Shown: positions 1,139-17,201, counted from the stretch's first letter. The stretch is DNA of 64,000 nucleotides from a virus (IMGVR_UViG_3300016263_001265:1-64000), one strand, 5' to 3'. Made by a program: numbers and translations. The notes: generated by a model not told the origin, from the letters alone.

Positions 1139-1401
1139 CTTGGCCTAGGGCGGGTTAGGGCGAGGACTTGACAGGGGTTGTTATTAGTGGTAGCCGAGCT
1201 CCCGCAGGAGCGAGGGTCGAACCACCGGTTAGTTAGGCTGTTCAGGTTAGTTAGGTTATTCGAGTTAGTTATATTATTAGTTCGGCCCCAGAGGACTGCG
1301 GCCCTCTGGGATAGAACCAGAAGCACCTACTTGACTCGCTGGTATCGGCTGCCTTACAATGGTCGGGCAGGGGCTTCCCTGTGAGTAGTAAGGAGGTCAT
1401 C

Positions 1402-2220
1402 ATGCCTAACTGGTGTGTGAACCAAGTGGACATACAGGGCGACGAGGCAGAGGTCGCACGATTGGTGGCGTTCGTCAAGGGCGACGACGAGAAGGACAAC
1501 GGAAACGATTTCTCGTTTGCCAAGATTGTTCCACCACCGAGGAGTGAAATCTATGGCGCGACAGATACGCAAAACGATTTCCAATGTGGTTGTAAGAAAG
1601 AGTGGATTACCACAAAGGAAGCCGTCGGCGAGCCGATGACCGAAGGGTTTGTGCCGCAGGAAGGCTACTGGGCGGTCAATGGCGTGAAGGTCGGAACCAA
1701 GATTCTTGCCAACGGCACGATTGAGGACAATGTTGCGATGATGTTCGGTGGCTCGGCGGTCTGCCCGATTCACGACCAGCCGCAGATTTCATCGCACCCA
1801 GATTGGTGGTACAACTGGAACTGCGCCAACTGGGGAACGAAGTGGAGCGCGGGAGATGTGTGGCACGACCGCTCTGACGACAGCAACGCTGTTGTTGAGG
1901 GAAAGACCTCGTACGGATTTGATACGGCGTGGTCTCCCGCGGAGCCTGTTGTTCTTGCTCTTTCGGCTCTCTTTCCGACGCTCCACATTACGCACCGATA
2001 CTGCGAAGGCGGTATGGGATACGCAGGTGAGGCGATGTATTTCGGTGGCGACGAGGTGTCGCGGCAGGAATACAACAGCGAGGGCGACAACCTCCCTGAC
2101 GAGGCGTGGCTGACCGATGAAAATGGCGAGCGTTCATACGAGCGGGACTACGACAAAGTGCCGATGACTCCGTTTGAGCGATTCTGCGATGAGCATTTCG
2201 GCGGAGTAGTTGGAGGCTGA
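1402..2220 (+). CDS. DUF1281/YubB-like ferredoxin-fold protein
   Basis: MPNWCxN N-terminus, WGTKW and FDTAWSP motifs; AAGGAGG SD before ATG 1402. Confidence 0.75.
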   Translation: MPNWCVNQVDIQGDEAEVARLVAFVKGDDEKDNGNDFSFAKIVPPPRSEIYGATDTQNDFQCGCKKEWITTKEAVGEPMTEGFVPQEGYWAVNGVKVGTKILANGTIEDNVAMMFGGSAVCPIHDQPQISSHPDWWYNWNCANWGTKWSAGDVWHDRSDDSNAVVEGKTSYGFDTAWSPAEPVVLALSALFPTLHITHRYCEGGMGYAGEAMYFGGDEVSRQEYNSEGDNLPDEAWLTDENGERSYERDYDKVPMTPFERFCDEHFGGVVGG

Positions 2221-2257
2221 TGTCATAGGGTAAAGGGACGCTACTCCCCTCTACCTG

Positions 2258-2291
2258 AATAATCCCCGTCGCGTTTGCGACGGGGATTATT
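2258..2291. terminator. bidirectional intrinsic terminator
   Basis: aataatccccgtcgc-gttt-gcgacggggattatt. Confidence 0.75.
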
Positions 2292-2410
2292 TATTATGTT
2301 CGCCCCCTCATGGCCGCCGCCATGAGGGATAGAACGCTTGACAGGTTGCTATGAGCCGTGAGATGATTCGGTTGTCGGGGCTTCCCGATGGGTAGCAAGA
2401 AGGAGGCAGT

Positions 2411-2965
2411 ATGCCGCTCAACTGGTATGTGGGGAACATCAAGAACGCGGACGATGTTTGTTGGATCACCGCAACACGCGACAGCGTGATGAACGGGCGT
2501 GTTCGCGGCGAGGAGTATCTCAATCCGATCACCGATCACTTCATCTGGGCGACGATGACGATCGGTCTGAACGAGATCACCGAGGAGAACATTGACGAGT
2601 GGGAGAAGCGACTCGCACTCGCCTATCAAATCGGTTGGTTGGACAAGATGGTCGTTTGGAACGGCAACGAGCCAGACGCAGACGGCAAGAACGCGCATTG
2701 CTTTGAGGCTCGCCCTCTCACTCGCGCAGACTTGGAGCGACACATCGGGCTTTCCACGAACGCCTCGTACGAGTCGGCGAGCGAGTGGCGCAAGCGCGTC
2801 GTTGAGCGACTGACGAAGGAAGGTCTGCGCGAGGCGAAGTACGACGAGAAGCGCAACGAGGAACTTGACGCGATCTGGCAGAAGGAGAGCATTGAGTTGC
2901 GCGACCGAATCCGACGCGGCGAGATCACGAAAGAACAAGCAGCAAAAGAGCCTGTGCCAGCGTAA
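2411..2965 (+). CDS. hypothetical protein
   Basis: ORF with SD and own promoter. Confidence 0.8.
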   Translation: MPLNWYVGNIKNADDVCWITATRDSVMNGRVRGEEYLNPITDHFIWATMTIGLNEITEENIDEWEKRLALAYQIGWLDKMVVWNGNEPDADGKNAHCFEARPLTRADLERHIGLSTNASYESASEWRKRVVERLTKEGLREAKYDEKRNEELDAIWQKESIELRDRIRRGEITKEQAAKEPVPA

Positions 2966-2986
2966 GTCTGGAAAGCAAATCGGAAT

Positions 2987-3016
2987 AAACAACCCGCCCT
3001 TCGGGGCGGGTTGTTT
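2987..3016. terminator. intrinsic terminator, UUCG loop
   Basis: aaacaacccgccc-ttcg-gggcgggttgttt. Confidence 0.8.
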
Positions 3017-3132
3017 ATTTTGTTCAGCCCCAAGAGACGGCGGTCTCTTGGGATAGAACCACTTGACAGGCTGCTAGGTTTGATGAGACAATCTGGTTGC
3101 CCCGACTTGGGGTGAGTAGAAAGGAGTGGCAA

Positions 3133-3582
3133 ATGGGGTACGACATCTTCTCGTTGCTGCCAGACCGAAAGGCAGCAGAGGCTCACGCAAAGAAGCACCG
3201 CTCAATGTGGATAAACGAGGACGGCTCGTATGATGAGAAGGCTCCTGAAACGCTGTATTTCAGGCTGAACATCTGGGGTATGCCGATGCTACGCGAGTTC
3301 CACGACTCCATCGGATTTGATTCAGTAAACGAAAACCTGATGGACAACAGCGGAAATGTAATCAAGGACTATGAGTGCCGAGAACTCGCGGAGAAAATCG
3401 CAGGGACGAGCGATGAGGCGATTCTGGAAATCATGACCGAGATTATCAGGGCAAATCCCTATAGCAGCGACAAGAGCAAGATTGACCCATCAGAGGAAGC
3501 GGGCTATTGGCTTGAGATTGTGAGGGAGTGGCAAGACTTCCTGTTTGGGTGCGCCGACCTGAAAGGCTGTGAAGTCCTATGA
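3133..3582 (+). CDS. hypothetical protein
   Basis: AAGGAG SD before ATG 3133. Confidence 0.75.
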   Translation: MGYDIFSLLPDRKAAEAHAKKHRSMWINEDGSYDEKAPETLYFRLNIWGMPMLREFHDSIGFDSVNENLMDNSGNVIKDYECRELAEKIAGTSDEAILEIMTEIIRANPYSSDKSKIDPSEEAGYWLEIVREWQDFLFGCADLKGCEVL

Positions 3583-3755
3583 AGAAGTGGGGCGTTCACT
3601 TGGAGATCGTCGGACATAAGTGGATTGAGGTAGAGGCAGATACCGCCGAACAGGCAAGAGAGATCGGTCTAGACATCGGAGTCAAAACGGACATCGGCGA
3701 GTTTACGGACAACACGGAAGTCGTCGTCGCCGATGTGGTGCTAGACGATGAGTAA
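3579..3755 (+). CDS. 58-aa DpnD/PcfM-like protein (not in ORF track)
   Basis: MKKWGVHLEIVGHKWIEVEADTAEQAREIG...; ATGA overlap with the upstream gene. Confidence 0.65.
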   Translation: MKKWGVHLEIVGHKWIEVEADTAEQAREIGLDIGVKTDIGEFTDNTEVVVADVVLDDE

Positions 3756-3945
3756 TCTGTTTCCGACCTCGCAACGGCAGTCCTGCGACTGCCCGACCGA
3801 CAGGCGCGACGCGCATTGGCTTTGGTCGGACTGCGAAGTCGCTGGGCACGAAGAGGGTTGTTATGTGGTCATGTGTAAGTCATGTGATCTCTGGTCGAGC
3901 GACTGCGACGAAGATTGGAAGCCGATCCCAGAAGATTGGAAATAG
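3748..3945 (+). CDS. small Cys-rich protein
   Basis: CxC and CxxC motifs, overlapping start. Confidence 0.55.
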   Translation: MSNLFPTSQRQSCDCPTDRRDAHWLWSDCEVAGHEEGCYVVMCKSCDLWSSDCDEDWKPIPEDWK

Positions 3946-4064
3946 TCGTTATTAGGTTATAGCCCGGAGAGCTGCGGCTCTTCGGGATAGAACCACTTGA
4001 CGGGTTGCTAGGTTTCTGCTTATGATGTGGTCAGCCCGATTGGGTGAAGTAGCAAGGAGGCGGT

Positions 4065-4277
4065 ATGGGCAAGGAATACAAGGTCATAGACTTCACATTT
4101 ACGGACGGGGGGTCGGTGTGCCTTCTCACGCCAGCGACACGGGACGCTCGGCGATGGCTGGCAGAGAACATCGGCGACGGCGCGATGTATCTGGGAGACT
4201 CGCTTGCGATTGAGCGTCGCTATGTTCAGGAGATTCTTGATGGTATTCGCGGCGACGGGTACGAGGTGGCTGTGTGA
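4065..4277 (+). CDS. hypothetical protein
   Basis: SD plus promoter. Confidence 0.75.
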   Translation: MGKEYKVIDFTFTDGGSVCLLTPATRDARRWLAENIGDGAMYLGDSLAIERRYVQEILDGIRGDGYEVAV

Positions 4278-4522
4278 GCGACCACTTTGAGATTCCCGTT
4301 GGAGACCCGCAGAACATCATCTTTACCTGCGACTGCGGCAAAGATGGTGAATACTGCTCCGACAATAACGCGAGCGGACATGCCGAGTGGTATTGCGCCG
4401 ACTGCGAAAACGATCGTTCGTTCAGGTACGGCTGTGCGATGTTCGTTGCCGAGGGTTGCGGCTGCGTTCCAGGCGGCGAGGACTGCGCCTGCGGTTGTGG
4501 CGGTACGGGGGTGATCAAATGA
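4274..4522 (+). CDS. Cys-rich microprotein
   Basis: About 11 Cys; GTGA and ATGA overlaps with neighbours. Confidence 0.6.
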   Translation: MSDHFEIPVGDPQNIIFTCDCGKDGEYCSDNNASGHAEWYCADCENDRSFRYGCAMFVAEGCGCVPGGEDCACGCGGTGVIK

Positions 4523-4845
4523 GCAGAAACGACGCTGCGTTCTTTACATACGATCACGGATCTATGCTCGTATGGCAGACGGAGGACAAGATGGTTCGCG
4601 TCTACAAAAACGGAGAAATGCGTATTCACTATGGCGACCGCGTTCTGCGATACACGGAAGACTTGGACGAAAACGGGTTTGATACCGATGAGAAACTTTC
4701 GCAGGCGACCAACGACGGGCTTCTTGATTGGTGGGAGAATCCGTGGTTTGAGGTTGTGTGGTCGGACAACGAAGACGGCGAGATCTTCCACGGATACGAA
4801 GAGGCTGTTGATTACGCAAAGAGGGTTCGCTCAGGCGACCTGTAA
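4519..4845 (+). CDS. hypothetical protein
   Basis: ATGA-coupled start at 4519. Confidence 0.7.
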   Translation: MSRNDAAFFTYDHGSMLVWQTEDKMVRVYKNGEMRIHYGDRVLRYTEDLDENGFDTDEKLSQATNDGLLDWWENPWFEVVWSDNEDGEIFHGYEEAVDYAKRVRSGDL

Positions 4846-4970
4846 TCTCGCTTATTATTGTTAGACCCCAAAGGGCGGCGGCCCTTTGGGCTAGAACTTG
4901 ACACAATCTTGGCGGGTATGAGACAATCTGCCTAGCGGCACTTGCCGTTGAGTAGTAAAGGAGGACGGAA

Positions 4971-5933
4971 ATGGCACACGAAATAGAAACGATGGCATAC
5001 AACAAGGAGCGCGGTATGCCGTGGCATGGACTCGGCGTTGCGAACGCTGGTCTCACCACGAGCGCGGAGATGATCGTCGCGGCTGGTCTTGATTGGAAGG
5101 TCAAGCAGCAGCCGATCTTCACCGACTACAACGGCGCGACCATCGCGATCAACGGCAAGCGCGCAAATGTGCGCGACACCGACGGCGCGGTTCTCGGTGT
5201 GGTGGGCGACCGCTACACACCGATCCAGAACGACGAGGTGATGTCGTTTGCGGACGCGCTGCTTGACGAAGGTGCGCGCTACGAGGCGGCGGGGTCGCTG
5301 CGTGGTGGGCAGATCGTCTTCACCGCGTTGGAGATCCCAGAGAAGATCGCGATCAAGGGCGACAACGGCGGCACGACGACCTACCTCGTCGTTGCCAACG
5401 GGCACAACGGGCTGTTTCCGCTCAAAGCGATGATCACCCCGATCCGCGTTGTTTGTATGAACACGCTGAACGCTGCTCTTGGCGGCGCGAAGATGTCGTT
5501 CACGCTCCGACACACGGCTCGCCTAGACGAGAAGGTGAAGGAGGCGAAGCGCGCTCTCGGCATCGCCTCAAAGGTGGTTGATGAGTTCTCGGAAGTCGCC
5601 TCTCGCATGGTTGCCGAGAAGGTGGAGCGAGATGAAGTCTTCCGCGTGATCACCACACTCTTCCCGCTCTCCCAGAAGGAGCGCGAAGACAAGGAAGTGC
5701 TTTCGGATCGCGCAAAGGCGACTCTCGCGATTCTCAACAACGCCGAGAACCTTGATGGTCTTCGGGATACGAAGTGGGGTTTGTATAACGCCATCGCGGA
5801 GTATCTTGATCACGGCGTTTCGTATCGCGGCGGCGTGCGCTCAACGGCAAACGACGCTCGCGCTTCTAGCGTGATGTTGGATACAGGCTTCGCTGCGAAG
5901 ACGAAGCGCGAGGCGATCGCGATTCTCGCGTAG
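4971..5933 (+). CDS. DUF932/DUF945-family phage/plasmid protein
   Basis: MAH...PWHGLG N-terminus, YTPIQN, GSLRGG, RVVCMNTL, HT and KWGLYNAIAEYLDH motifs. Confidence 0.85.
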   Translation: MAHEIETMAYNKERGMPWHGLGVANAGLTTSAEMIVAAGLDWKVKQQPIFTDYNGATIAINGKRANVRDTDGAVLGVVGDRYTPIQNDEVMSFADALLDEGARYEAAGSLRGGQIVFTALEIPEKIAIKGDNGGTTTYLVVANGHNGLFPLKAMITPIRVVCMNTLNAALGGAKMSFTLRHTARLDEKVKEAKRALGIASKVVDEFSEVASRMVAEKVERDEVFRVITTLFPLSQKEREDKEVLSDRAKATLAILNNAENLDGLRDTKWGLYNAIAEYLDHGVSYRGGVRSTANDARASSVMLDTGFAAKTKREAIAILA

Positions 5934-5952
5934 TCTCTGGTATCGCGTAAAT

Positions 5953-5982
5953 AAATAAGCCGCCCTTCGGGGCGGCTTATTT
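5953..5982. terminator. intrinsic terminator, identical to the copy at 6597-6626
   Basis: aaataagccgccc-ttcg-gggcggcttattt. Confidence 0.8.
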
Positions 5983-6096
5983 ATTATGTTCGGCCCCAAG
6001 GGGCCGCCGCCCCTTGGGATAGAACGCTTGACACGCTGCCAACCGAGGTAATACAATGATGAGGCTCCGCTTGGAGTAGAGTAGCAAGGAGGCGAA

Positions 6097-6588
6097 ATGA
6101 GTTGGAAGCGGTACAAGGTTGAGGTCGTAAGGCACGAGATTGCCGAGGCAAAGCCGTTCAGGATTGAGCGACCTACGGCGGCGGTGGATTTGTTCAGAGA
6201 GGACGCGAGCCGTCTGATGACTGAATCGCTTTGGGTGATGACGCTAGACGGACGCAACGGACTGATGGGCATTGAGCAGGTCTACTCTGGGACGGCAACA
6301 GGCACGAGCGTCCGAGTCGGTGAGTTGTTTAGGTACGCAGTCTCCTCTGGTGGTTGCGCCATCGTGTTGGTTCACAACCACCCAAGCGGAGACGCAACGC
6401 CGAGCGACGAGGACATTAGGCTTACGAGCGAAGTAATCGCAGCGTCCAAACTATTGGACATTGAGGTTCTTGACCATCTCGTTCTTGGCACAGGCGGCGT
6501 GTTTACGAGCATTAGGTCGCAGCGCACAAGTCTCTGGGACAGCAACAGCATAGTTGATGTGATTGAGGCTGTCGGCGCAACAAACTGA
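6097..6588 (+). CDS. RadC-like JAB-domain protein
   Basis: HNHPSGDATPSDEDIRLT and VLDHLVLG motifs. Confidence 0.9.
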   Translation: MSWKRYKVEVVRHEIAEAKPFRIERPTAAVDLFREDASRLMTESLWVMTLDGRNGLMGIEQVYSGTATGTSVRVGELFRYAVSSGGCAIVLVHNHPSGDATPSDEDIRLTSEVIAASKLLDIEVLDHLVLGTGGVFTSIRSQRTSLWDSNSIVDVIEAVGATN

Positions 6589-6596
6589 AACGAAGT

Positions 6597-6626
6597 AAAT
6601 AAGCCGCCCTTCGGGGCGGCTTATTT
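6597..6626. terminator. intrinsic terminator
   Basis: Same sequence as 5953-5982. Confidence 0.8.
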
Positions 6627-6742
6627 ATTATGTTCGCTCGCAAAGGGCGGCGGCCCTTTGCGGTAGAACGCTTGACGAGTCTGGGGAGATGGATTTACAA
6701 TGTGGACACCCTGCTTGGGGTGCTGTGAAAAAGGAGGCGACA

Positions 6743-7006
6743 ATGGGATTCCTGCGAGCGTCAATGACGATGTGTGGCAACGGCGATTGCTACTACGACC
6801 AATGCGAGTGCGAAACGCACGACCACCCGATGGTTCAGGAGTGCGATGGCGAAACGCATTTGAGTCTTGATAAGCGTTGTCCGTTTGAGGGCAAGGACAG
6901 GCGGGTCAAGTTTGGTTGGAACGGCTATGAACTCGCCTATGACGAGGTGATTTCGCTCTGCGACGACTGCTGGGACGCTGCGATGTCCGTTGCGAGTGAA
7001 TACTAA
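6743..7006 (+). CDS. Cys-rich hypothetical protein
   Basis: AAGGAGG SD before ATG 6743. Confidence 0.7.
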   Translation: MGFLRASMTMCGNGDCYYDQCECETHDHPMVQECDGETHLSLDKRCPFEGKDRRVKFGWNGYELAYDEVISLCDDCWDAAMSVASEY

Positions 7007-7199
7007 TGGACGCGCAGGGCGCGTTCTATTTGATGTTCGGTTCGCTGCTTCTCTGGGCGTACTTCCTCACGAGGAGGTAGTCCCTATTATTATGGGGTGG
7101 CGCAAGCAGCCGCCGCTGCTTGCGATAGAACGCTTGACGAGTCGGGTATACCTGTGGGAGAATACGCTTGTCGGAGAACCGACAGAAGGAGGCAAGACA

Positions 7200-7469
7200 A
7201 TGGACGCTACACCAATCGCGTGGCAGTACGAGGCTTCTGTTCATTGCGTAAAGTGCGCCGAGGGCAAGTGGGGTGCTGCGCTAAACGACGAAGGAACACT
7301 TGATAGCGAAGGCAACAATCTTCACCCCGTCTTTGACTGGGACGATGTGAATCTGTGCGGTGAGTCTTGCGGGACTTGCCTTGACTGGGCGATTGAGCCA
7401 GTACCGCACGAGCCAGCCAGTTGTCTGCTAGGATACGACTGCCGACTGCCACAGGCGGCGGCACTATGA
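7200..7469 (+). CDS. Cys-rich hypothetical protein
   Basis: SD before ATG 7200; CxxC motifs. Confidence 0.7.
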   Translation: MDATPIAWQYEASVHCVKCAEGKWGAALNDEGTLDSEGNNLHPVFDWDDVNLCGESCGTCLDWAIEPVPHEPASCLLGYDCRLPQAAAL

Positions 7470-7660
7470 CTACGGATAGGTAGAAGAGCCTCCACCTATC
7501 CATCACGAGCGGAGCAGTTGCGTCGCAGCCAACTGCTCCGCTTCTTATTGTTCAAGCCCAAAGAGCCGCAGCTCTTTGGGATAGAACGCTTGACGGGCGG
7601 CTCACAATGGGATTACAATGGGCGCAGCCCACTTGGGCGGGTAGCAGTAAGGAGGCTCAA

Positions 7661-7999
7661 ATGTTCTGGAAGGCTCTGGCAGTTTCGCTCACGAACGGCG
7701 ACTTTATCCGCGAAGGCGACGATTGGATTGTTGACCCAAAGCACAATGCGCGCCTTGACGGATTCGCCGAAAAGTTCTCTCAAATCTACAACGACACGCT
7801 GAACGGCTGGCATCACCCAGACGATTCTCTGGAAACCGAGCAGGACGGCGTGTACGACAAGTATGGAGTCGTAATCGTACATTGGCGCAACGACGGATTC
7901 ATTGACTTCGTTGCGTTTGACTCCGAAGATGGAGCGAAGCGCGAGTGGAGCGACATCGCCGATGTGTACGACCTAATGCCAAACGGCAAGACTTTCTGA
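7661..7999 (+). CDS. hypothetical protein
   Basis: SD before ATG 7661. Confidence 0.75.
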   Translation: MFWKALAVSLTNGDFIREGDDWIVDPKHNARLDGFAEKFSQIYNDTLNGWHHPDDSLETEQDGVYDKYGVVIVHWRNDGFIDFVAFDSEDGAKREWSDIADVYDLMPNGKTF

Positions 8000-8118
8000 A
8001 CATAATAAGTTCGGCTCCAAGAGGCGGCGGCCTCTTGGACTAGAACCCTTGACGGCTGGGTTCTGGTCGTTATAGAATCGGGTAGTGCCAAATGGCACAG
8101 GCATAGAAGGAGGCAGAA

Positions 8119-8409
8119 ATGGGAAAGGCAATCAAACTCGCAGAGGCAGCGGAGATGATTCGCAACAGCAACGGCGCAATCTTCGGGGTGGACTTCGTGA
8201 AGCGCACGACGGGCGAGGTTCGCAAGATGACGGCGCGGCTCGGAGTGAAGAAGCACCTGAAAGGCGGCGAGGCGGCGTATGACGCGGCGGCGAAGAATCT
8301 CATCTTCGTCTACGACATCGCGGCGAAGGGATACCGCACCATCGCGCTTGACGCAATCAAGGCGGTGCGATTCGGCGGCGAGCAGTATGAAGTTGAGGAG
8401 GCACGATGA
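8119..8409 (+). CDS. SH3-fold DUF2693/WYL-like protein
   Basis: FGVDFVKRTTGEVRKM...VYDIAAKGYRTI pattern. Confidence 0.6.
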   Translation: MGKAIKLAEAAEMIRNSNGAIFGVDFVKRTTGEVRKMTARLGVKKHLKGGEAAYDAAAKNLIFVYDIAAKGYRTIALDAIKAVRFGGEQYEVEEAR

Positions 8410-8642
8410 ACGGCGTTGCGAGCGTTGAGCCAGCGGTCTGGTATCAAATCCACACAAACGGAGCGACGACGACCTTCGCCCGATACTATCGGCAGGACGA
8501 TGGGCTTTATCGCTTCCAGAAACTCGCAGCCGACCACACGGCGGAGCCAACAGGATTCGCGGAAATCTTTGGCGACGAAGTGATGGAATCGCTTGGCGAG
8601 GTTTCGCTTCGTATGACTCGCGCAATCGTAAGCAAAGAATAA
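8406..8642 (+). CDS. hypothetical protein
   Basis: ATGA-coupled. Confidence 0.65.
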   Translation: MNGVASVEPAVWYQIHTNGATTTFARYYRQDDGLYRFQKLAADHTAEPTGFAEIFGDEVMESLGEVSLRMTRAIVSKE

Positions 8643-8765
8643 CGCTCATTATAGTTCAGCCCCAAGTGGCCGCCGCCACTTGGGATAGAACCACTTGACG
8701 GCTGGCTGAATAGTATGCGACAATCCGATAGACGGCGACTGCCGTTGTAGTAGCAAGGAGGCAAG

Positions 8766-9071
8766 ATGGCTGCGAACTTCGCAAAGACCGAGGAGTACCT
8801 TGAAAACGCAAAGGGTATCGCGTGGGATACCTGCCACAAGATTTATGTCCTGATGGACGACGAGCAGATGGCGCAGATGAAAGAATACGGGTATGACCCG
8901 CTTATCCCTGCAAGCGAACTCACGCCGAGCGAGATGCTTCACCAAGTTCGGTATTGGTACGCACAATCCTGCGGCTTGCGGTTCGTTCAAGCGGTTTACA
9001 CAAACCACAATAATCCGAACGACGGATTCGTTGCCCTGATTGAGCAGGGAGATGATTACGAGGAGGAGTAG
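8766..9071 (+). CDS. hypothetical protein
   Basis: SD plus promoter. Confidence 0.75.
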   Translation: MAANFAKTEEYLENAKGIAWDTCHKIYVLMDDEQMAQMKEYGYDPLIPASELTPSEMLHQVRYWYAQSCGLRFVQAVYTNHNNPNDGFVALIEQGDDYEEE

Positions 9072-9195
9072 GTAGTCCTCAAATAATAAGGGCGGGGAAA
9101 CCCGCCCTTATTATTGTTATAGCCCAACAAGCGGCGGCTTGTTGGGATGGAACCAAAGATGGGGGCTTGACAAGCGGCTTGGGATGCCTGATACT

Positions 9196-9428
9196 CCCTT
9201 TGTCGGGAGCGATCCTAGGAGCAGCAAACGACAGGGTGAGACTCGTGGACGAGCGAGCAGGTCAGCCGCAGCCCTAAATGCGGGATGACGAGAGGCAAAG
9301 GACGATGACCGCTAGGTGCCAATGGATCGGCGGAGCGGTAGGAAAAGGAGCCGAGGGAAGTGATTAGCCCTCGGTGAATAATCCGAAAGAAGCCCCTTGG
9401 AGCCGACGGGTTCCGAGGGGCTTCTTAT
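9196..9428 (+). ncRNA. candidate structured sRNA 1
   Basis: Promoter at 9167 and terminator at about 9389-9428; no convincing ORF; several helices. Confidence 0.55.
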
Positions 9429-9504
9429 TAGGTTCAGCTCCAAGCAGCCGCCGCTGCTTGGAATAGAACGCTTGACTTTCGCATTTGTCCGTGGGACAAT
9501 CGTT

Positions 9505-9748
9505 CCACGAGCCGCTCTGGTGCCGCTGTGAAGGTGGCGGGCTTATGGGGCTGCGGCTGGTTGGTAGTTGCAGACAAACTACTCGCGACGATAAGGACGA
9601 GCGGGGTGGGTGAATAACCAACACCTATGCCGCTTGCAAGAGGTAGCCGAGAGGTAGAGCCTCTCTCCGCAAGGGGATAAGCGTCAAGGCGGCGATACGC
9701 CGATGAGGGTCTGGTTGGTGTGGTGCCAGCCAGACCCTCATCATTTTG
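9505..9748 (+). ncRNA. candidate structured sRNA 2
   Basis: Promoter at 9472 and terminator at about 9703-9748; no long ORF; nested helices. Confidence 0.55.
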
Positions 9749-9856
9749 TTCGTCCTCAAAGGGCGGCGGCCCTTTGAGATAGAACGCTTGACGAGTTGCC
9801 AAGTGTTCGCGTAGTATTCAGGTGCGGGGACTTCCCGCGAAGCATAGGAGGCTCAG

Positions 9857-10177
9857 ATGGCAGACGGATACAACGGCTGGACGAACTGGGAAACTTGGGT
9901 GACGAATCTCTGGATTCAGGAGGGGCTGCTTGACCTCTTTGAGGCTGGCGAGCAGGCGCGCTACTTCGCCGAGCAGGACGAGGACACAGCCGCCTACGAG
10001 ATGGGCAAGTGGATTCGCGAGCAGGTTGAGGAGATTATCGGGGAGCAGCCCGCGGGACTTGTCGCGGACTTTGTCGGCGGCGCGCTCGGCTCGGTTGATT
10101 GGACGGAAATCGGCGAACACTTCACCGACGAAGCAATCCAGAACGAGCGCGAACAAACAGAGAACGCGGACGAATAG
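9857..10177 (+). CDS. conserved phage hypothetical protein (YNGWTNWETW motif)
   Basis: Motif recurrent in phage accessory proteins; SD plus promoter. Confidence 0.75.
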   Translation: MADGYNGWTNWETWVTNLWIQEGLLDLFEAGEQARYFAEQDEDTAAYEMGKWIREQVEEIIGEQPAGLVADFVGGALGSVDWTEIGEHFTDEAIQNEREQTENADE

Positions 10178-10297
10178 CGGCATAATAAAGTAAGACTCCA
10201 AGCACCCGCCGGTGCTTGGAATGGAACCCTTGTGCGTTCGTGGAAGTTCGTGTAGTATTGCCTAGCGGCGGTTGCCGTGAGTAGTAAGGAGGCTGAG

Positions 10298-10558
10298 ATG
10301 GCAGAGTATAAGGTTCGCGGGTGCGCCGTTCTGAGCAGCGGGAAGGTCTGGTCGGATACGATTCTGGTCAAGGGCAATGTGAGCCGCGACAATGCGCTCG
10401 GCAAGGCGCGCCGTATGTTGGAACTATGGAAGGGCGCGGACAATGTTCGCCGAACCGCATTCTGGTTCGCTGATGACCCTGATAGCGTTGCCGAAGGCGA
10501 GAGCAGCGCGCGCCTTATGCTCCGCGAGGCTGAGGCAAGGGGCGAGATTACCGCCTAG
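10298..10558 (+). CDS. hypothetical protein
   Basis: SD before ATG 10298. Confidence 0.7.
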   Translation: MAEYKVRGCAVLSSGKVWSDTILVKGNVSRDNALGKARRMLELWKGADNVRRTAFWFADDPDSVAEGESSARLMLREAEARGEITA

Positions 10559-10687
10559 CCTATCGGCTGCTTCATTAGTTCGGCTTGGAGCAGCCGCGGC
10601 TGCTCCAACTAGAACCTATTGACGGAATCCAAGACATCGCATAGTATTCGTTGTGCGGGGACTTCCCGCCAATAGCAGGGGGCTCAA

Positions 10688-10921
10688 ATGGCAGGAGAAA
10701 GATACACAAACGGCATTATGGAAGGTATGCTTTCTGGGCGCGTAAACTATGCGCTTGACGCAAGCCTAGACGCAAAGGGCGAGAAGCGAGAAGCCTACCT
10801 CAAGGCGGCGCAATACGCGCAAGCCGCTCTGTTCGCCTACGAGGTAAACGGAGATTCGGATGAGGTACGCCAACTCACGACACTTTCGTTTGATTGGATG
10901 GATAAAGCAAACGAAATCTAG
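10688..10921 (+). CDS. hypothetical helical protein
   Basis: SD plus promoter. Confidence 0.7.
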   Translation: MAGERYTNGIMEGMLSGRVNYALDASLDAKGEKREAYLKAAQYAQAALFAYEVNGDSDEVRQLTTLSFDWMDKANEI

Positions 10922-11045
10922 GGCATAAATAGTTCGGCTCCTATTGGCCGCCGCCAATAGGATTAGAACGCTTGACGGCTCGCGCTGTGTTGGCGTAGTA
11001 TTCAGGGGCGGGGACTTCCCGCGAGTAGTAAAAGGGGGCAAAAAA

Positions 11046-11474
11046 ATGGGGAAGGCAATCAAGTTTGCGGTGGGGCAGTTTCTAGACGGAACGCCAACAC
11101 CCGCGCTGTTCAATTGGATTGAGATCGTGGACTTCAACGATGACGGCAACACGCTCAAAGAGCTTTACCGAGTCGGCGAGTGGTACATGACCGAGGTCGC
11201 CGCTTCTGGTAAGTACGGTGCTACGAGTGTCGTGCTCTGGTGCGATGAGGAAGGGCTTTATCATCAGCCCGTCATTCGCAATCAGGCGGCAACTTCGCTG
11301 CGAAACGAAATCCTCGGCGGTCGCTTTGACGCTCTGTTTGGGAACTGCGTACTCACCGCAGAGGACGAGGACGGCAAGACGCTTGCGCTCACCGATGAGC
11401 AGGTTTCGGAAATCAAGACGCTGCTAGAACTTGGCGGGTATCCAATCATCACGGACAACTCAACCAAGAACTAG
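11046..11474 (+). CDS. DUF3846-like protein
   Basis: LWCDEEGL...N..AT...LFGNCVLT motif. Confidence 0.7.
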   Translation: MGKAIKFAVGQFLDGTPTPALFNWIEIVDFNDDGNTLKELYRVGEWYMTEVAASGKYGATSVVLWCDEEGLYHQPVIRNQAATSLRNEILGGRFDALFGNCVLTAEDEDGKTLALTDEQVSEIKTLLELGGYPIITDNSTKN

Positions 11475-11639
11475 GCGCGAAAGAGTCATAAACAGACAAG
11501 CGGGGCGATTGCCCCGCTTGTTTGTTTGTTCAGCTCCAATCTGCCGCGGCAGATTGGAATAGAACCCCTTGACGAATCCGAATCGGCGTGCCTACAATGG
11601 GCGTAGCCCGATTGGGCTGGCTGCGAATAAAGGGGGGCT

Positions 11640-11780
11640 ATGGTGGACGAGTTTCTTGAGTGCAAGTGCGTATGCGGTTGCGAGGCATACGCGGGCGAAT
11701 ACTCCTGGTGTGTGGACTGCCTGGAAGGTACGCACCAGAACAACAACAAACTAGACGATGGCGAACTAGGCAAAGAGTAG
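11640..11780 (+). CDS. 46-aa Cys-rich microprotein (not in ORF track)
   Basis: MVDEFLECKCVCGCEAYAGEYSWCVDC...; SD upstream. Confidence 0.55.
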   Translation: MVDEFLECKCVCGCEAYAGEYSWCVDCLEGTHQNNNKLDDGELGKE

Positions 11781-11794
11781 AAGGAGATAGAGAG

Positions 11795-11998
11795 ATGTGC
11801 GATTGGTGCAACGAGGTAATCGCTCCAGACGCTCCGAGGTGGATGGACGAACACGCGGGACTCTACTACCACGACTACTGCGGCGCGGAACTCCGAGCGG
11901 AGTTGCGAGCCGAGGCAGCCGCGCTGCTAGGCGACCGCGAGGCGTACGCCTACGAGGACGATTGGGACGGCTCTCAGTTTCTCTGGGATAGGAGATAA
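11795..11998 (+). CDS. small Zn-finger-like protein
   Basis: CDWC...HDYC motif; AAGGAG SD. Confidence 0.6.
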   Translation: MCDWCNEVIAPDAPRWMDEHAGLYYHDYCGAELRAELRAEAAALLGDREAYAYEDDWDGSQFLWDRR

Positions 11999-12193
11999 CA
12001 CAAGCACCGATGGCGGCGGGGAAACCCGCCGCCATTATCGTTATGCTGCAAGCGTCCGCCGACGCTTGCAATCGAACGTTAGTTATGTTGTTAGTTAGAT
12101 CAGGGAGTTGCGAGATCGAACTAGATTCGATGGAGAGATGAGATTGAACCACCCCGCCCGCCGCGCGTCCGCGGCGAGCGGGGTGTTCGTCTA

Positions 12194-12439
12194 CTAGATT
12201 TCGTTTACTTCGAGGTCGTCCATCCTCGGGAATTTGTCGTACGCTTCATTGTACGCTTCCTCCCACGCTTTCTCGGCGCAGCCATCGCAATTGAGAATCG
12301 CGTCCATGCGCTCATCCCATTGCTCTGTCGTTTCATCCTTTGGCTCTTTGTGCTCGTCGCACAGCATTGAATCGTAATCTTGGTCGACCTCAATAGTGTC
12401 CTCTATTGTCGCAACCACCTTGAACCTACGGCTCGGCAT
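12194..12439 (-). CDS. hypothetical protein, unit 1
   Basis: SD and repeat module upstream. Confidence 0.75.
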   Translation of the reverse strand: MPSRRFKVVATIEDTIEVDQDYDSMLCDEHKEPKDETTEQWDERMDAILNCDGCAEKAWEEAYNEAYDKFPRMDDLEVNEI

Positions 12440-12675
12440 TATCAGCCTCCTGTTTTACGATTCACACTATCAACGATAGTGCGTCGGCGTCCCGATGGAT
12501 AGATAGTGCCAAGAGCGATTAGTCAGTTTAGGTTCGTGCGATGCGAGCGGAGCGAGCAATTGAACGTTAGTTAGGGTTAGTTAGTTATCTTATGGGCTGC
12601 CGAGCTCGAACAAAGTGAGGGAGACGAGGGATACCACCGCCCCCCACCGCGCGTCCGCGGTGGGGGGCGGGGTGC

Positions 12676-12978
12676 CTATGCCTTCGACTGAGCCTTCTCA
12701 ATCGCCTTCATAGCAGAAGCCTGACGCTTCTGGAGTTCCTTGACGTTTGCTTCATAGTAGGCAAGAGCCTTGTTGGCAACATCAAGCGCGGCGTTCAGTT
12801 TCTTGACGACGCTCTTGCTGGGCTTCTCTGCTCTTGCGACTATCGCAATCTGCTCTTGCGTGAAGTCAACGGCGTCCATAGCCGCAGCACGCTGCTCAAT
12901 AGAGCGCGCGAGGAGTTTCGTGATGACCCCAAGCGACTCTGTTGCTGTGCGCTTCGCGCGCTTTACTTTCTCTCCCAT
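12676..12978 (-). CDS. coiled-coil hypothetical protein, unit 2
   Basis: SD and module. Confidence 0.8.
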   Translation of the reverse strand: MGEKVKRAKRTATESLGVITKLLARSIEQRAAAMDAVDFTQEQIAIVARAEKPSKSVVKKLNAALDVANKALAYYEANVKELQKRQASAMKAIEKAQSKA

Positions 12979-13206
12979 AAAGCCTCCTGTGCTATGACTT
13001 GATTATGCGGCGCGTCCGCCGCTACAAGAAGAATACGCGGTTTGTAAAGTTTAGTCAGGTTAGGTCGTAAGCCGCGGAGCGGCGAGTCGAACCTGGTTAT
13101 GTAGTTAGTTAGTTATCTTATGGAGTTGCGAGATCGAACAAAGTGAGATAGAGACGAGAGACCTAACCACCCGAGCCGCAGGACCTCGCGGCTCGGGTGG
13201 GTTGGA

Positions 13207-13473
13207 CTATCGGTTCGTGGAAGCTTCAACCGTGAATCCGTCAATCGCTCGGCGCAAGTACGATTGATGGCGTGATGTCGTCACGCTGTAGCGCTGATTG
13301 TTTAGATTCCAATGCGTGCCGTCAGTCTGACCAATCCACTGATTGTACGAATACACCACATAGATTTCTCCCTGCCACTCGCCACGCATACTCCCTGTGT
13401 GCGAAGAGAAATCATCTAGGCGCGAAATCGCCGCGATGACCTCTTTACGATTTAGCCGCTTACGCTTTCCCAT
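13207..13473 (-). CDS. conserved phage hypothetical protein (YSVTTSRHQS motif), unit 3
   Basis: Motif; SD before ATG 13473. Confidence 0.75.
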   Translation of the reverse strand: MGKRKRLNRKEVIAAISRLDDFSSHTGSMRGEWQGEIYVVYSYNQWIGQTDGTHWNLNNQRYSVTTSRHQSYLRRAIDGFTVEASTNR

Positions 13474-13695
13474 TACTTTCCCTCCTACTACTAGCGCGGG
13501 AAGTCCCCGCTCATCCATAATCGCGGTATCGCTTAGATAGTTTAGGTTCAGTCGTAGCGAGCGGAGCGAGCCGTGGAACGTTATGGTTATCCAGTTAGTT
13601 ATCTTAGGGATCTGCGGGATAGAACGAAGTTCTATAGAGAGGAGGAATCTACCAACCCCCCACCGCAGCGCGTCCGCTGCGATGAGGGGTTGGAT

Positions 13696-13944
13696 TTACT
13701 GAGCGATTGCTTCCCGCTCTGCCGTGAGTTGGTCCCACGCTTCCAAGAGAGCGTCCTTCGCTTTCATGTGAGCGGTGTACTCCTGGTCCCAATGGTCCAG
13801 AAGCGTATCGTACATCTTGTCATCGCCACACTTGATTTCTCTGCCGTTCAGTTTCTTCCAATGATTCTCATAAGAAGAAAGATTGGCGTATGCCGCCCTC
13901 TCCGAGAGAAAAGTAAGTGCGAACATTTTATAGAACTCGTCCAT
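13696..13944 (-). CDS. helical hypothetical protein, unit 4; paralog of 15140-15397
   Basis: Shared pattern MDxxYxxFALxxLxERxA...Y.xLxDxWD. Confidence 0.8.
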   Translation of the reverse strand: MDEFYKMFALTFLSERAAYANLSSYENHWKKLNGREIKCGDDKMYDTLLDHWDQEYTAHMKAKDALLEAWDQLTAEREAIAQ

Positions 13945-14196
13945 ACTGCCCCCTGTACTAAACGATTCACGCCATCAACGATAGCGTGTCGGCGTCCCGA
14001 TACAAGAAGAATAGGTGGCTCGAAGAGTTTAGTCAGGTTGCCGCGTTAGGCGCGGAGCGCCGAGTCGAACTTAGTTAGTGGTTATTATTAAGTTAGTTAT
14101 CCTGCGAAGTTTCGGGATAGAACGAAGTTCTATAGAGAGCATCGAACTAACCACCACCGCCAACCGCGCGTCCGCGGCTGACGGTGGTGGGGATTC

Positions 14197-14418
14197 TCAG
14201 TATCCTCGGCGCGTCCGAATCTTTTCCTTTACATGCTCAACGACGCGGTCCTCTTCACTATTCCAGAAACAATCCGCGCAGATTGCCTCGGGAAGTATGG
14301 TGTCGTAACCATAGTAGTCTTCCCAGGAATCTTGGATTTCATCCTCGCTTCCAGTGGCATCACACCAACTGCAAGTGAGGACTTTCTCCTCTTGCTCTAT
14401 CTTTTCCTCTAAGGTCAC
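14197..14418 (-). CDS. CxxC-CxxC microprotein, unit 5
   Basis: CSWC and CADC. Confidence 0.7.
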   Translation of the reverse strand: MTLEEKIEQEEKVLTCSWCDATGSEDEIQDSWEDYYGYDTILPEAICADCFWNSEEDRVVEHVKEKIRTRRGY

Positions 14419-14655
14419 TTTACACCCCCAGAACTAAACGATTCACGCAACCAACGGTAGCGCGTCGGCGTCCCGATGAATAAAGAATAGGCATTCTGAG
14501 AAGTTTAGTCAGGTTCATTCGATAGCCGCGGAGCGGCGAGTCGAACTTAGTTAGGCAGTTAGTTATCTTATGGGACTGCGAGCTCGAACGTAGTTCGAGA
14601 GAGAAGAGCGATCGACCACCCCCCGCCGCGCGTCCGCGACGAGGGGTGAGTCGAA

Positions 14656-14907
14656 TCAGATCGGAAGATCCATCAAGATCCTTGTGCGCTGATCGTCGGT
14701 GAGCATTCTCCAGATGTCAAGTTCCTTCATCTTGTCGTGAAGGTTCATGCGATCGCCGTACACGCCACCGAGCATGCCAACGATACACTCTGGATTGTCT
14801 TCATCCGTGATCTCCGTCAGGAAGTATTCTGGAATACCCTGATCGAATCCGTAGATGAACTTTCGCTCTTCGCCCTTGACGATTGCTTTAAGTCTGTACT
14901 GGCTCAT
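14656..14907 (-). CDS. hypothetical protein, unit 6
   Basis: SD and module. Confidence 0.75.
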   Translation of the reverse strand: MSQYRLKAIVKGEERKFIYGFDQGIPEYFLTEITDEDNPECIVGMLGGVYGDRMNLHDKMKELDIWRMLTDDQRTRILMDLPI

Positions 14908-15139
14908 ACCTACCTCCTATAACTACTACTACAACTATACGGCGCGTCCGCCGTGCTAATACGATCCCAGATTCGCTGGGTCAGTTTAGGGTCGTGCGTT
15001 GGACGCGGAGCGGCCTGTCGAACTTAGGTTAGGGTTAGTTAGTTATATTGTGGAGTTGCGGGATAGAACGAAGTTCTATAGAGAGCAGAGATCTACCAAC
15101 CCCCCACCGCAGCGCGTCCGCTGCGATGGGGGGTTGGAT

Positions 15140-15397
15140 TTACTGAGCGGAGAGAACCGTGAAGGTTCCCTCTGCTTTCATCTTTCGATATTCCTTGGTG
15201 AGGACTTTCTCTACGTCCTTGAGTTCAGTGTGCGCCGCGTCCCACTCGTCGACGAGTGAAGCGTATACGGCGTCCGTAGCGTACCGTGGCTCTGGCTTGC
15301 CCTGCGCAGCAGCGATTGTTTCCCACTGCTGAACATTGCGCCACGCTTCTCGCTCCGCAAGCCACGCAAGAGCGAATAGTCTGTACAAACTATCCAT
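15140..15397 (-). CDS. helical hypothetical protein, unit 7
   Basis: Paralog of unit 4. Confidence 0.8.
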   Translation of the reverse strand: MDSLYRLFALAWLAEREAWRNVQQWETIAAAQGKPEPRYATDAVYASLVDEWDAAHTELKDVEKVLTKEYRKMKAEGTFTVLSAQ

Positions 15398-15630
15398 ACT
15401 GCCTCCTGTTATCTTGACTCACGCTATCAACGATAGCGTGTCGGCGTCCCGATGAATACAGAGTAGGGAGTACGAGAGGTTTAGTAAGGTTACTGCGTAA
15501 GGCGCGGAGCGCCGAGTCGAACTTAGTTATCCAGTTAGTTATATTAGGGGCTGCCGAGATCGAACAAAGTTCGATAGAGAGAGACGACCTAACTCCCCCA
15601 GCCGCGCGTCCGCGACTGGGGGAGTAGGCT

Positions 15631-15933
15631 TCAGATTGACCAGCCGTCAGCGGGCATCTCTTCGATGATCCACTGATCGGCTTCGTTGCGCTCACGCACG
15701 CGATAGCCGATTGGCTTCAACGCATCGTTCAGCGTTGTGCGCATTCCGTCACTAGCGAACTCGTCAAGGTATCCCCTAGGGTTTGCCTTGCGGCGATAAT
15801 CCAACGCCTTGACGATTCTATCCGATACCCTATCGGTAATCTCGTTCAGCGCGGCATCATTCTCCGCCCCCGTCTTCCTATCATCGTGGCGGTATACAAC
15901 CAACCACTCGATAGGATTGTAGTGCTTACTCAT
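15631..15933 (-). CDS. hypothetical protein, unit 8
   Basis: SD and module. Confidence 0.75.
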   Translation of the reverse strand: MSKHYNPIEWLVVYRHDDRKTGAENDAALNEITDRVSDRIVKALDYRRKANPRGYLDEFASDGMRTTLNDALKPIGYRVRERNEADQWIIEEMPADGWSI

Positions 15934-16208
15934 AACTACCTCCTATAACTACTACTACTATTGCGCGGTGCGTCCACCGCCTATCCATAATCAGGGATAG
16001 GATAGTTCATTCATTGTGGTGGCGATAGGCGCGGAGCGCCGTCTAGAACGTTAGTTAGGGTTAGTTAGTTATCTTATGGAGTTGCGAGATCGAACAAAGT
16101 TCGATAGAGATCAACGCACTAACCCACCCCCCACTCGCCGCTTGCTGCGAGTGGGGGGTGGAGCGAGCGCCCTAGCAGTGAGCGCTCGCTGTGTTGCTCC
16201 CGAGTGTG

Positions 16209-16454
16209 CTAATCGGCGTTCGCCATAGCACGATTCAGATCAGCCTGAGCACGCTCAAACTCATCCTCACGATGCCATAGCACCCGATTCGCTGTCTGCA
16301 CATCGCGGTGCGAGAGCGGCGAGTTCCCCAGGTATGGGGCTCGCTGCTGTGCAACGCGGTGCTTCGCAGCGACAAAATCACACTGCGCAGCAATCAAGCG
16401 ACCGAGAGTTTCGTCTCGGCGCTTTTTTGCTGCCGCCAGATTCCTGTCGGACAT
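16209..16454 (-). CDS. hypothetical protein, unit 9
   Basis: SD before ATG 16454. Confidence 0.65.
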   Translation of the reverse strand: MSDRNLAAAKKRRDETLGRLIAAQCDFVAAKHRVAQQRAPYLGNSPLSHRDVQTANRVLWHREDEFERAQADLNRAMANAD

Positions 16455-16698
16455 AAGCACCTACCTTTCTGTCGCCACGCCTGCTATTGCGTTGCCTCGG
16501 CGACAAGAAAAGAATACGAAGACTCGCAGGGTAGTTTAGGTTGCTGCGATGGGCGCGGAGCGGCCAATCGAACGTTAGTTAGGGAGTTAGTTATATTACG
16601 GGCTGCCGAGATCGAACTCATCCGTATGGAGAGAAGGGATCGACCTACCCCCCACCGCGTTTCCGCGATGGGGGGTAGTGGAAGCGATTGGCTACTGG

Positions 16699-16956
16699 CT
16701 AGACCTTGTGCTCGTCCATCTCCGAGTCTAGGAATTTGTATTCCTTGATCTCCGTGTCGTTTGCCGGTTCGGCATTGTCGACCGTCGCATCTCCCTCGTT
16801 GGCGTAATCCGTCGCCCAACCATTAGCAACAAGATTCTCAGCAATCTCTTTTGCTTGCTCGAGATTCTTTGCCATGATCGGTAGCGGGTACTCTACAAGG
16901 ACCGATACCGTCACCATGAACGGCATCATCTCCGGTTGCTTCTTTTTCTTTCCCAT
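16699..16956 (-). CDS. DpnD/PcfM-like protein, unit 10
   Basis: PIMAKNLEQAKEIA pattern. Confidence 0.7.
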   Translation of the reverse strand: MGKKKKQPEMMPFMVTVSVLVEYPLPIMAKNLEQAKEIAENLVANGWATDYANEGDATVDNAEPANDTEIKEYKFLDSEMDEHKV

Positions 16957-17201
16957 GACAGACCTCCTGCTTTACGGTACACATAGGCGGCGCTTCCAAC
17001 CGCACATCCATAATCGCGGTTGCGTGCTTATTGTTTAGGTTGTCCCGTTAGGCGCGGAGCGCCGACTCGAACTTAGTTAGTTATTGGGTTAGTTATATTA
17101 GGGACACGCGAGATCGAACGAAGTGAGAGGGGCGAGGGATCGACCACCCCGCCCACCGCGCGTTCGCGGTGAGCGGGGTGTGGTGCGTGAGCAGCTATCG
17201 A

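Follow-up and report, generated by a model that had tools for sequence, protein, structure and literature searches.

We analysed a 64,000-nucleotide stretch of viral DNA (IMGVR_UViG_3300016263_001265:1-64000; hereafter the window) in which 18 early-gene cassettes are bracketed by 19 copies of a 38-bp palindromic element (1280–12077, + strand). The best-supported reading of this element is that it is a boundary module like those of the promoter-early stem-loop (PeSL) cassettes of T4-type myoviruses (Arbiol et al. 2010, PMC2839356; Comeau et al. 2014, PMC4122927), with the stem-loop in this case having become a DNA palindrome that is rigid, pairs strictly by Watson-Crick rules, and sits just upstream of every early promoter. 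The virus record is complete (84,616 bp, with direct terminal repeats) and comes from freshwater metagenomes; its first 64 kb make up the window. The virus is a siphovirus, with genes for a portal, prohead protease, major capsid protein, head-tail adaptor, terminase, tape measure, and fibre.

A reading of the window from its sequence alone (the sequence-only reading) had described 19 copies with a fixed layout of 4+3+10+4+10+3+4 nucleotides (outer word, spacer, arm, loop, arm, spacer, and outer word), and our searches confirmed this. A hairpin scan of the whole 84,616-bp genome recovered 19 copies, all on the + strand and all within 1280–12077, and found the layout nowhere outside this block. 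A covariance model, which we built from 47 element copies, returned the same 19 sites in the window and no others at E ≤ 0.1. The simpler pattern GTTM-N30-GAAC has 17 + strand matches in the block, compared to 3.6 expected for the whole window on both strands. When the block was compared to deposited phage genomes with megablast, there were no matches.

Behind 18 of the 19 elements there is a sigma70-type promoter, which consists of TTGAC(A/G) (TTGTGC once), a spacer of 17–18 nt, and a TAnAAT-like box. The promoter is followed by a short leader hairpin, a strong Shine-Dalgarno sequence, and then one to three small genes or a non-coding stretch. On the + strand we found 17 promoter-like sites, every one of them directly behind an element (4.5 were expected on both strands). 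There is no + strand gene before the first element and no promoter behind the last, so that the n cassettes are bracketed by n+1 elements. Every copy is preceded by an AT-rich tract of 7–10 nt. In 10 of the 19 copies this tract is the tail of a strong terminator-type hairpin (-26 to -36 kcal/mol); the earlier statement that separate terminators often precede the element holds for these copies. The terminators at 2256–2297, 2985–3021, 5958–5987, 6600–6631, 9080–9115, and elsewhere lie between an A tract and a T tract, and several of those in the block have cUUCGg or GAAA loops. The canonical terminators of the block look bidirectional. As the sequence-only reading had said, the element itself lacks a U tract, and this is true of both strands: what comes after the hairpin is nTAGAAC with TTGAC behind it on the + strand, and a mix of A and T on the - strand.

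By searching with the DUF932 gene and with the portal, we found a large clade of freshwater phages, with about 145 relatives from the portal search, and five more of these genomes carry the element (L001, L002, G001, G002, and G003; portals 74–84% identical to the window's). Each has 12–16 copies in a single block of about 10 kb and on one strand, and in all six genomes the last copy is promoter-less. Two more distant relatives, G004 and G005 (portal 56% identical), have no covariance-model matches and no arrays of a hairpin plus TTGAC. Given its presence in the five relatives and its absence from these two, the element family is specific to one lineage. G004 (about 5.9–10.0 kb) and G005 (about 74.1–80.8 kb) have other repeat arrays, of the TGAATGATGA type and the GGGGGTATGGGG type (loci L403–L412), in what seem to be corresponding regions. 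Pattern scans for the element in viral, metagenome, and genome collections, which appear not to have covered near relatives, gave, among the matches listed, only single chance matches without hairpins.

The six genomes together have 93 copies. The distance from GAAC to TTGAC is 0 nt in 10 of these copies, 2 nt in 41, 3 nt in 23, 4–5 nt in four, and 12–14 nt in nine, and the other six are the promoter-less last copies. These distances form two classes about one helical turn apart (0–5 nt, with 78 copies, 64 of them at 2–3 nt; and 12–14 nt, with nine). Within the window, the proposed position just upstream of the -35 box, mostly within 0–4 nt, is correct for 16 copies (0–3 nt) and incorrect for two copies at 13 nt (1280 and 9116) and for the promoter-less copy at 12040. 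The promoter-less last copies have lost YCCAA from the stem base and often GTTC, and have some of the lowest model scores, yet their arms are perfect. The sequence-specific words (GTTC/GAAC, YCCAA, and the loop) are best kept in copies that adjoin the -35 box, which suggests that these words serve a promoter-linked function.

Conservation and pairing in the stem-loop

Among the 19 window copies, the outer 5' word is GTTC in 13, GTTA in four, and degenerate in two (GGGG and GTAA, once each), and the outer 3' word GAAC is invariant, in agreement with the first description. It was also correctly noted that only two of these copies have a mismatch in the arms (A-C at 1280 and G-T at 3956). Across the 47 copies used for the model, which are from three genomes, positions G1, G19, C20, and G35–C38 are invariant. 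The inner helix is 99.8% paired in these copies, and two-sided changes occur at all 10 pairs. In a covariation test, there were 133 doubly changed cells, compared to 33.6 in shuffles, and slid controls collapsed. The stems had been described as freely covarying, and the covariation is indeed strong; but arm positions 1–5 (YCCAA), the C at arm position 10, and the loop (N-GC-N) are conserved, so that about four pairs per stem vary widely, using all four Watson-Crick pair types.

The three-base spacers are non-complementary and asymmetric: T33 hardly varies, and all four bases occur at its partner, position 6. We considered wobble at this internal-loop pair (6/33) as a sign of RNA and rejected it as not decisive, because the pair is G-T in 58% of copies but C-T in 26%. 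The conserved words recur at steps of 8–9 bp along the element, and the word TAGAAC is concentrated in both cassette arrays of the genome (the second is described below).

For the statistics of arm pairs, we used all 93 copies (930 pairs): 928 pairs are Watson-Crick, one is G-T, and one is A-C. As a control, we considered 47 distinct terminator hairpins from the same intergenic regions of the six genomes and counted the ten pairs nearest to the loop. In these hairpins, 41 of 467 pairs (8.8%) are G-U, which is significantly different from the element (p = 3e-19, Fisher's exact test). The mismatch filter did not bias the set of elements, because a model search that accepts G-U recovered no additional copies from the window, G002, or G003. 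In other words, the ordinary RNA hairpins of these phages tolerate wobble and the element does not. Because wobble is avoided and the pairing reads alike on both strands, the constraint is at the level of DNA, unlike that on an ordinary RNA hairpin. Such a strand-symmetric constraint fits the potential to form a DNA hairpin or cruciform, or a need to fold on both strands, and it is at odds with an ordinary terminator or stabiliser. It would be compatible with the cruciform or hairpin switch that the sequence-only reading had raised.

Comparisons between genomes also show that the strand-symmetric pairing is under purifying selection. G002 and G003 are 96% identical over the block. Their arms differ by 0.6% (one compensated pair in 320 sites), and their flanks, promoters, leaders, and coding DNA differ by 3.4–6.2%. 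We also compared 21 pairs of copies whose upstream flanks are nearly identical: 24 arm pairs show two-sided differences, and there are no one-sided ones. Some of these 24 differences reflect turnover of the whole hairpin rather than stepwise substitution, including at some syntenic junctions, so "orthologous compensatory substitution" is a safe description only for single-pair differences between close relatives. No chimeric hairpins with mismatched arms were found among the 93 copies. The idea that shape is selected and not sequence thus holds for the middle of the stem; the stem base, the stem top, the loop, and the outer words are also conserved in sequence.

The positions that close the loop (18 and 21) are hypervariable, with 28% of them being different between G002 and G003. 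In three of 16 orthologous pairs from these two genomes, the loop is flipped between CGCC and GGCG. This is how small loop inversions at inverted repeats behave, and it shows that intrastrand DNA events do occur.

Cassette exchange and comparison with known systems

The cassette families are permuted in order among the six genomes. Every genome for which the start of the block was recovered has the same first cassette, and five of the six share the last one. Where a junction is non-syntenic, the flank upstream of it matches one ortholog, and the promoter and leader match another. The switch between orthologs occurs at either edge of the hairpin, mostly at ...GGRnTAGAAC/TTGAC and sometimes in the AT tract before GTTC. 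The hairpin itself travels mostly with the upstream gene, and with the downstream gene in the case of cassette 11.

Contigs from other lakes contain further joints. The joint 8000->8651 removes element 10 and its cassette; the joints 8691->9499 and 8691->11000 fuse the last base of element 11 to the promoters of two other cassettes; and in the joint 6978->4868, cassette 5 follows cassette 7 through another hairpin. The joint 2960->3578 is not at any element. The expected link to cassette shuffling, with breakpoints at the element, is therefore borne out by the permuted orders in six genomes and by breakpoints and metagenome joints at the element's edges. A dedicated, structure-specific recombination system, which had also been suggested, is not supported: a tyrosine recombinase (PF00589) is absent from the complete genome, although control genomes were positive, as are a serine recombinase (PF00239) and a Y1 transposase (PF01797), and the crossovers lie in the conserved flanks and not inside the hairpin. 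The genome does encode an exonuclease similar to lambda Exo and RecE (25449–26318). With no recombinase and with this exonuclease, general recombination at short conserved homologies would be sufficient, as proposed for PeSLs.

PeSLs had been named as the nearest known concept, with a different architecture, and both parts of this comparison were accurate. In both systems, a repeated intergenic module joins a stem-loop and an AT-rich tract to an early sigma70 promoter of near-consensus sequence; the module flanks small and mostly orphan early genes; cassettes are gained, lost, and reordered among relatives; and crossovers occur inside the module, with no need for a dedicated recombinase. In PeSLs, however, the stem-loop is short, is mostly located between the -35 and -10 boxes or over the -10 box, varies in its position, and is read as an RNA terminator. 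Here, a rigid 38-bp element lies wholly upstream of the -35 box (by 0–5 or 12–14 nt in all promoter-linked copies), its arms are strictly Watson-Crick, its outer words and loop are conserved, it often has a separate terminator before it, and the host phage is a siphovirus. Excised mini-circles are a further feature of PeSL cassettes. The element shares with PeSLs the composite promoter module and the cassette shuffling, and not the layout.

The attC sites of integrons are likewise imperfect palindromes that keep their structure while the sequence varies, with conserved words at the base, and there is one site per cassette (n+1 sites in an array). Unlike attC, the element occurs without an integrase (PF00589 is absent), without extrahelical bases, with a promoter for each cassette, and with breakpoints on both sides of the hairpin. 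Also, most copies have no GTTRRRY core, as GTTC followed by G does not fit the RRR positions. The element is not an intrinsic terminator in the sense of a G+C-rich hairpin with a U tract, and a terminator scan picked the separate upstream hairpins instead; the sole element that it listed was the copy at 10190, on the - strand.

The hairpin promoters of the N4 virion RNA polymerase have a stem of 5–7 bp and a 3-nt loop, and the hairpin itself is the promoter. Like the element, they are DNA hairpins in the early region of a phage whose form matters beyond sequence; they also depend on supercoiling. The element has a 10-bp stem and a 4-nt loop, lies upstream of ordinary sigma70-type promoters, and occurs without a recognisable virion RNA polymerase. 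Repetitive extragenic palindromes and bacterial interspersed mosaic elements (REP/BIME) belong to enterobacterial chromosomes and are associated with RAYT transposases; their stems contain mismatches, and they have no link to promoters. They resemble the element in being intergenic imperfect palindromes of 35–40 bp with a conserved head, and roles in mRNA stability, gyrase binding, and insulation have been proposed for them; the element differs in being phage-borne and promoter-linked, with near-perfect stems. The RNase III hairpins of T7 and SP82 lie inside transcripts, downstream of promoters, with a helix of about 20 bp that tolerates non-canonical pairs. These too are hairpins with internal loops that are repeated between early genes. 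The T7 sites are palindromes (PMC11707656). The element is shorter, is strictly Watson-Crick, and lies upstream of each promoter. Finally, the window had no Rfam matches at the gathering score. In E-value mode, there were only sub-threshold matches, none of them centred on the element, and most of these end in the terminators upstream of elements 3, 6, 7, 12, and 19.

Explanations for the element

We tentatively favour the view that the element is a fold-dependent cis element that acts as DNA and would provide common control or insulation of the early promoters, with cassette shuffling as a consequence of its conserved edges. The 38-bp element would be the structured half of a boundary module of about 130 bp, which comprises, in order, the AT-rich tract, the strict palindrome, the sigma70-type promoter, the leader hairpin, and the Shine-Dalgarno sequence. 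Such modules would separate autonomous early cassettes that carry host-takeover or anti-defence types of cargo. The site would have to be able to fold into a hairpin or cruciform right next to every early promoter, on its upstream side, and the folded form might be read by supercoiling, by one factor that binds hairpins or junctions, or by both. The early promoters would then be controlled together, and each cassette would be insulated from its neighbours. The left edge (the AT tract with GTTC) and the right edge (...GGRnTAGAAC with TTGAC) could provide the short stretches of homology that the phage's general recombination system uses to cut out, reinsert, and swap cassettes, with no dedicated recombinase involved; we observe the pattern of exchange and infer this mechanism from it.

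Several points weigh against this view. The palindrome has a G+C-rich centre, which slows the extrusion of a cruciform from duplex DNA, as established cruciform kinetics predict. The spread of 0–5 nt is loose for a stereospecific contact with RNA polymerase, and the promoter-less last copy keeps its pairing in all six genomes. Among the early proteins there is no recognisable DNA-binding domain or regulator, and no factor was identified. In G001 the loop is mostly TCCG (eight of 14 copies), instead of the N-GC-N of the other genomes, and it is kept in a single orientation (eight copies versus none reversed). In RNA this would be a UNCG-type tetraloop, which hints at a strand-specific role. Frequent conversion from arm to arm or from copy to copy could also contribute to the perfect pairing. 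Conversely, palindromes are a known liability and are costly to phages (PMC11707656), so some benefit must exist.

In a narrower version of this idea, which we consider unlikely, the element would be a switch gated by supercoiling. Extrusion of the cruciform would move the AT tract beside the -35 box and so boost or silence all 18 early promoters together, according to the topology of the incoming DNA, with the cruciform possibly being held by a junction-binding factor that reads GTTC/GAAC. For copies at 0–3 nt, the AT tract would land at about -38 to -47, which is the proximal subsite of an UP element; for copies at 12–14 nt, its position would be at the distal subsite, farther upstream by one helical turn. 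Such a switch would be a structural and sequence-independent form of promoter control that makes the cassettes position-independent.

A hairpin that acts in the RNA read out from the upstream cassette, and possibly in antisense RNA as well, is the strongest competitor to a DNA-level element, and it has a modest chance of being correct. It could be an attenuator or terminator without a U tract, a stabiliser of 3' ends, or an RNase III-type site; such roles have been proposed for the stem-loops of PeSLs and are known from the early mRNAs of T7 and SP82. The hairpin would be stable as RNA (-17 to -25 kcal/mol), the element is at the 3' end of every cassette, including the promoter-less last one, and the arms go with the upstream gene at most non-syntenic junctions. 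PeSL stem-loops without an obvious U tract reduce reporter expression like a strong terminator does (PMC2839356), and the TCCG loop of G001, with its one orientation, would also make sense in RNA. However, the arms contain just one G-T among 930 pairs, as compared to 8.8% G-U in terminator hairpins a few bases upstream, and there is no U tract on either strand. Furthermore, 10 of the 19 copies already have a strong terminator-type hairpin before them, and element 1 has no + strand gene or promoter-like site upstream. The 17–18 pair-equivalents, with a lower stem of 4 bp, are short for RNase III, and the loop of the window's lineage is equally frequent in both orientations.

It is less probable that the element is a plain duplex operator, at which a dimeric or tetrameric regulator, such as a repressor for early shut-off, reads GTTC, YCCAA, GC-N-GC-N-GC, TTGGR, and GAAC in double-stranded DNA. 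Complementarity in the middle of the stem would then be a by-product of correction by intrastrand template switching and not required. The conserved words every 8–9 bp, the presence of TAGAAC in two cassette arrays, and a loop consensus that is specific to each lineage, as expected if it co-evolves with a factor, are consistent with an operator, and the loop flips show that the palindrome undergoes intrastrand events. But in close relatives conservation is 7–10 times higher in the arms than in the flanks, and this is not expected from conversion alone. The 93 copies include no one-sided differences and no chimeric hairpins, the 5' and 3' spacers are asymmetric, and the early proteins include no candidate regulator. 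We think it very unlikely that the element is a dedicated site like attC, whose folded hairpin is recognised by a recombinase that moves the cassettes. The n+1 sites for n cassettes, the fixed geometry with variable stems, and the permutation of cassettes between relatives resemble such a system. However, the complete genome encodes no tyrosine recombinase, serine recombinase, or Y1 transposase; the breakpoints lie in conserved flanks on both sides of the hairpin, with no single fixed position; every cassette carries a promoter; extrahelical bases are absent from the stems; and the joint 2960->3578 is away from any element. Least likely of all is a selfish or neutral palindromic repeat without its own function, which would simply be carried along as the promoter module propagates. 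The module as a whole occurs repeatedly and does spread by recombination, but geometry and pairing are kept in 93 copies even though the genes are mostly 66–82% identical (DNA, most aligned stretches), the arms diverge little between close relatives, and palindromes are a known liability for phages (PMC11707656).

If the element does act as DNA, it would be among the cleanest natural cases of selected intrastrand complementarity in duplex DNA beside bacterial promoters, given the 93 copies and an internal control in the terminator hairpins of the same regions, which behave differently. It would also be a tractable system for studying whether hairpin or cruciform DNA regulates transcription or insulates genes in vivo. 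More broadly, the PeSL principle is that standardised boundary modules allow small early genes to be rearranged and traded among phages with no need for a recombinase. These arrays extend it from the T4-type myoviruses to an abundant freshwater clade of uncultured siphophages. This may help to explain the shuffling of anti-defence-type cargo (DUF932, RadC, Api92-like, and DUF3846).

The individual elements and other features of the genome

We list the 19 elements, all of them on the + strand; those for which no outer 5' word is given have GTTC. Element 1 (1280–1317; loop TGCG) has the A-C mismatch and is 13 nt from TTGACT, with no + strand gene upstream; viewed from the - strand, it is 8 nt upstream of a TAACTAAC module. 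Element 2 (2298–2335; loop CGCC) is 2 nt from TTGACA and element 3 (3022–3059; loop GGCG) is 3 nt from TTGACA, and both have a terminator hairpin upstream. Two copies with GTTA follow: element 4 (3956–3993; loop TGCG), which contains the sole G-T pair of the family and is 3 nt from TTGACG, and element 5 (4860–4897; loop GGCG), which directly abuts TTGACA (0 nt) and precedes the DUF932 cassette. Element 6 (5988–6025; loop CGCC) precedes the RadC cassette, at 2 nt from TTGACA.

The next three elements are each 2 nt from TTGACG: element 7 (6632–6669; loop GGCG), element 8 (7094–7131; loop CGCC), whose outer 5' word is the degenerate GGGG, and element 9 (7550–7587; loop CGCA). So is element 10 (8009–8046; loop GGCG), which is missing from lake contigs together with its cassette (8001–8650). 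Element 11 (8654–8691; loop CGCC) is 3 nt from TTGACG, and it is its last base, 8691, that is joined in lake contigs to the promoters of two other cassettes. Element 12 (9116–9153; GTTA; loop GGCG) is 13 nt from TTGACA and element 13 (9432–9469; loop CGCC) is 2 nt from TTGACT; these precede the first and second non-coding cassettes, respectively.

Element 14 (9748–9785; loop GGCG) is 2 nt from TTGACG. Element 15 (10190–10227; loop CGCC) has the degenerate outer word GTAA and is 2 nt from the weak -35 box, TTGTGC. In element 16 (10578–10615; loop CGCG), the stem base is swapped (TTGGA/TCCAA), and TTGACG is 3 nt away, as it is for element 18 (11528–11565; loop CGCG); for element 17 (10932–10969; loop CGCC), it is 2 nt away. 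Element 19 (12040–12077; GTTA; loop CGCC) is the promoter-less copy, and it abuts the first TAACTAAC module of a convergent array on the - strand.

The cargo of the cassettes (1402–11474) includes a ferredoxin-like domain of the DUF1281_C/Api92-like type, DUF932, RadC, DUF7249, DUF3846, many orphans, and two non-coding units. This early cargo resembles the anti-defence genes of plasmid leading regions. The non-coding cassettes (9154–9431 and 9470–9747), in units of 316 bp, have no open reading frame, and each has a stretch of about 230 nt with a strong terminator at its end. Among relatives, these cassettes are 86–94% identical at the DNA level, as compared to mostly 66–82% for most protein-coding cassettes. 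They have no Rfam match. They are probably phage small RNAs.

The - strand array belongs to a second class of module, with about 15 copies at 12078–18640 and 1217–1271 (both on the - strand) and a period of about 500 bp. After each gene, these modules have a G+C-rich hairpin, then (A)T(A/C)GAAC-NNN-GTTC (in about half of the copies), AT-rich TAACTAAC repeats, GTTCGA with a conserved CGCTCCGCG core, a leader, and a gene of 73–100 amino acids. The array and the + strand block are convergent. Beside element 1 there is a copy that fires leftward, and the copy that abuts element 19 has no gene behind it. The words TAGAAC and GTTCGA are common to this module and to the 38-bp element. The second class may be a distinct class of promoter.

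Elsewhere in the window, the open reading frame for the prohead protease (31335–33395) matches phrog_3636 ("DNA binding protein") across residues 296–435. The tape measure has 3474 amino acids (45879–56303), with PF20155 near residue 1800, and the fibre has 2218 amino acids (39222–45878) and an endosialidase-chaperone domain; these very long proteins imply an unusually long tail. We considered whether the 3474-residue protein might be a virion RNA polymerase (N4-like or P23-45-like) that uses hairpin promoters, and rejected this, as PF20155 identifies the protein as the tape measure and it has no DxDGD motif. The first 1500 residues of the tape measure matched no solved structure by sequence, and there is no sequence evidence of an RNA polymerase domain fused to it, as in the Thermus phage P23-45.

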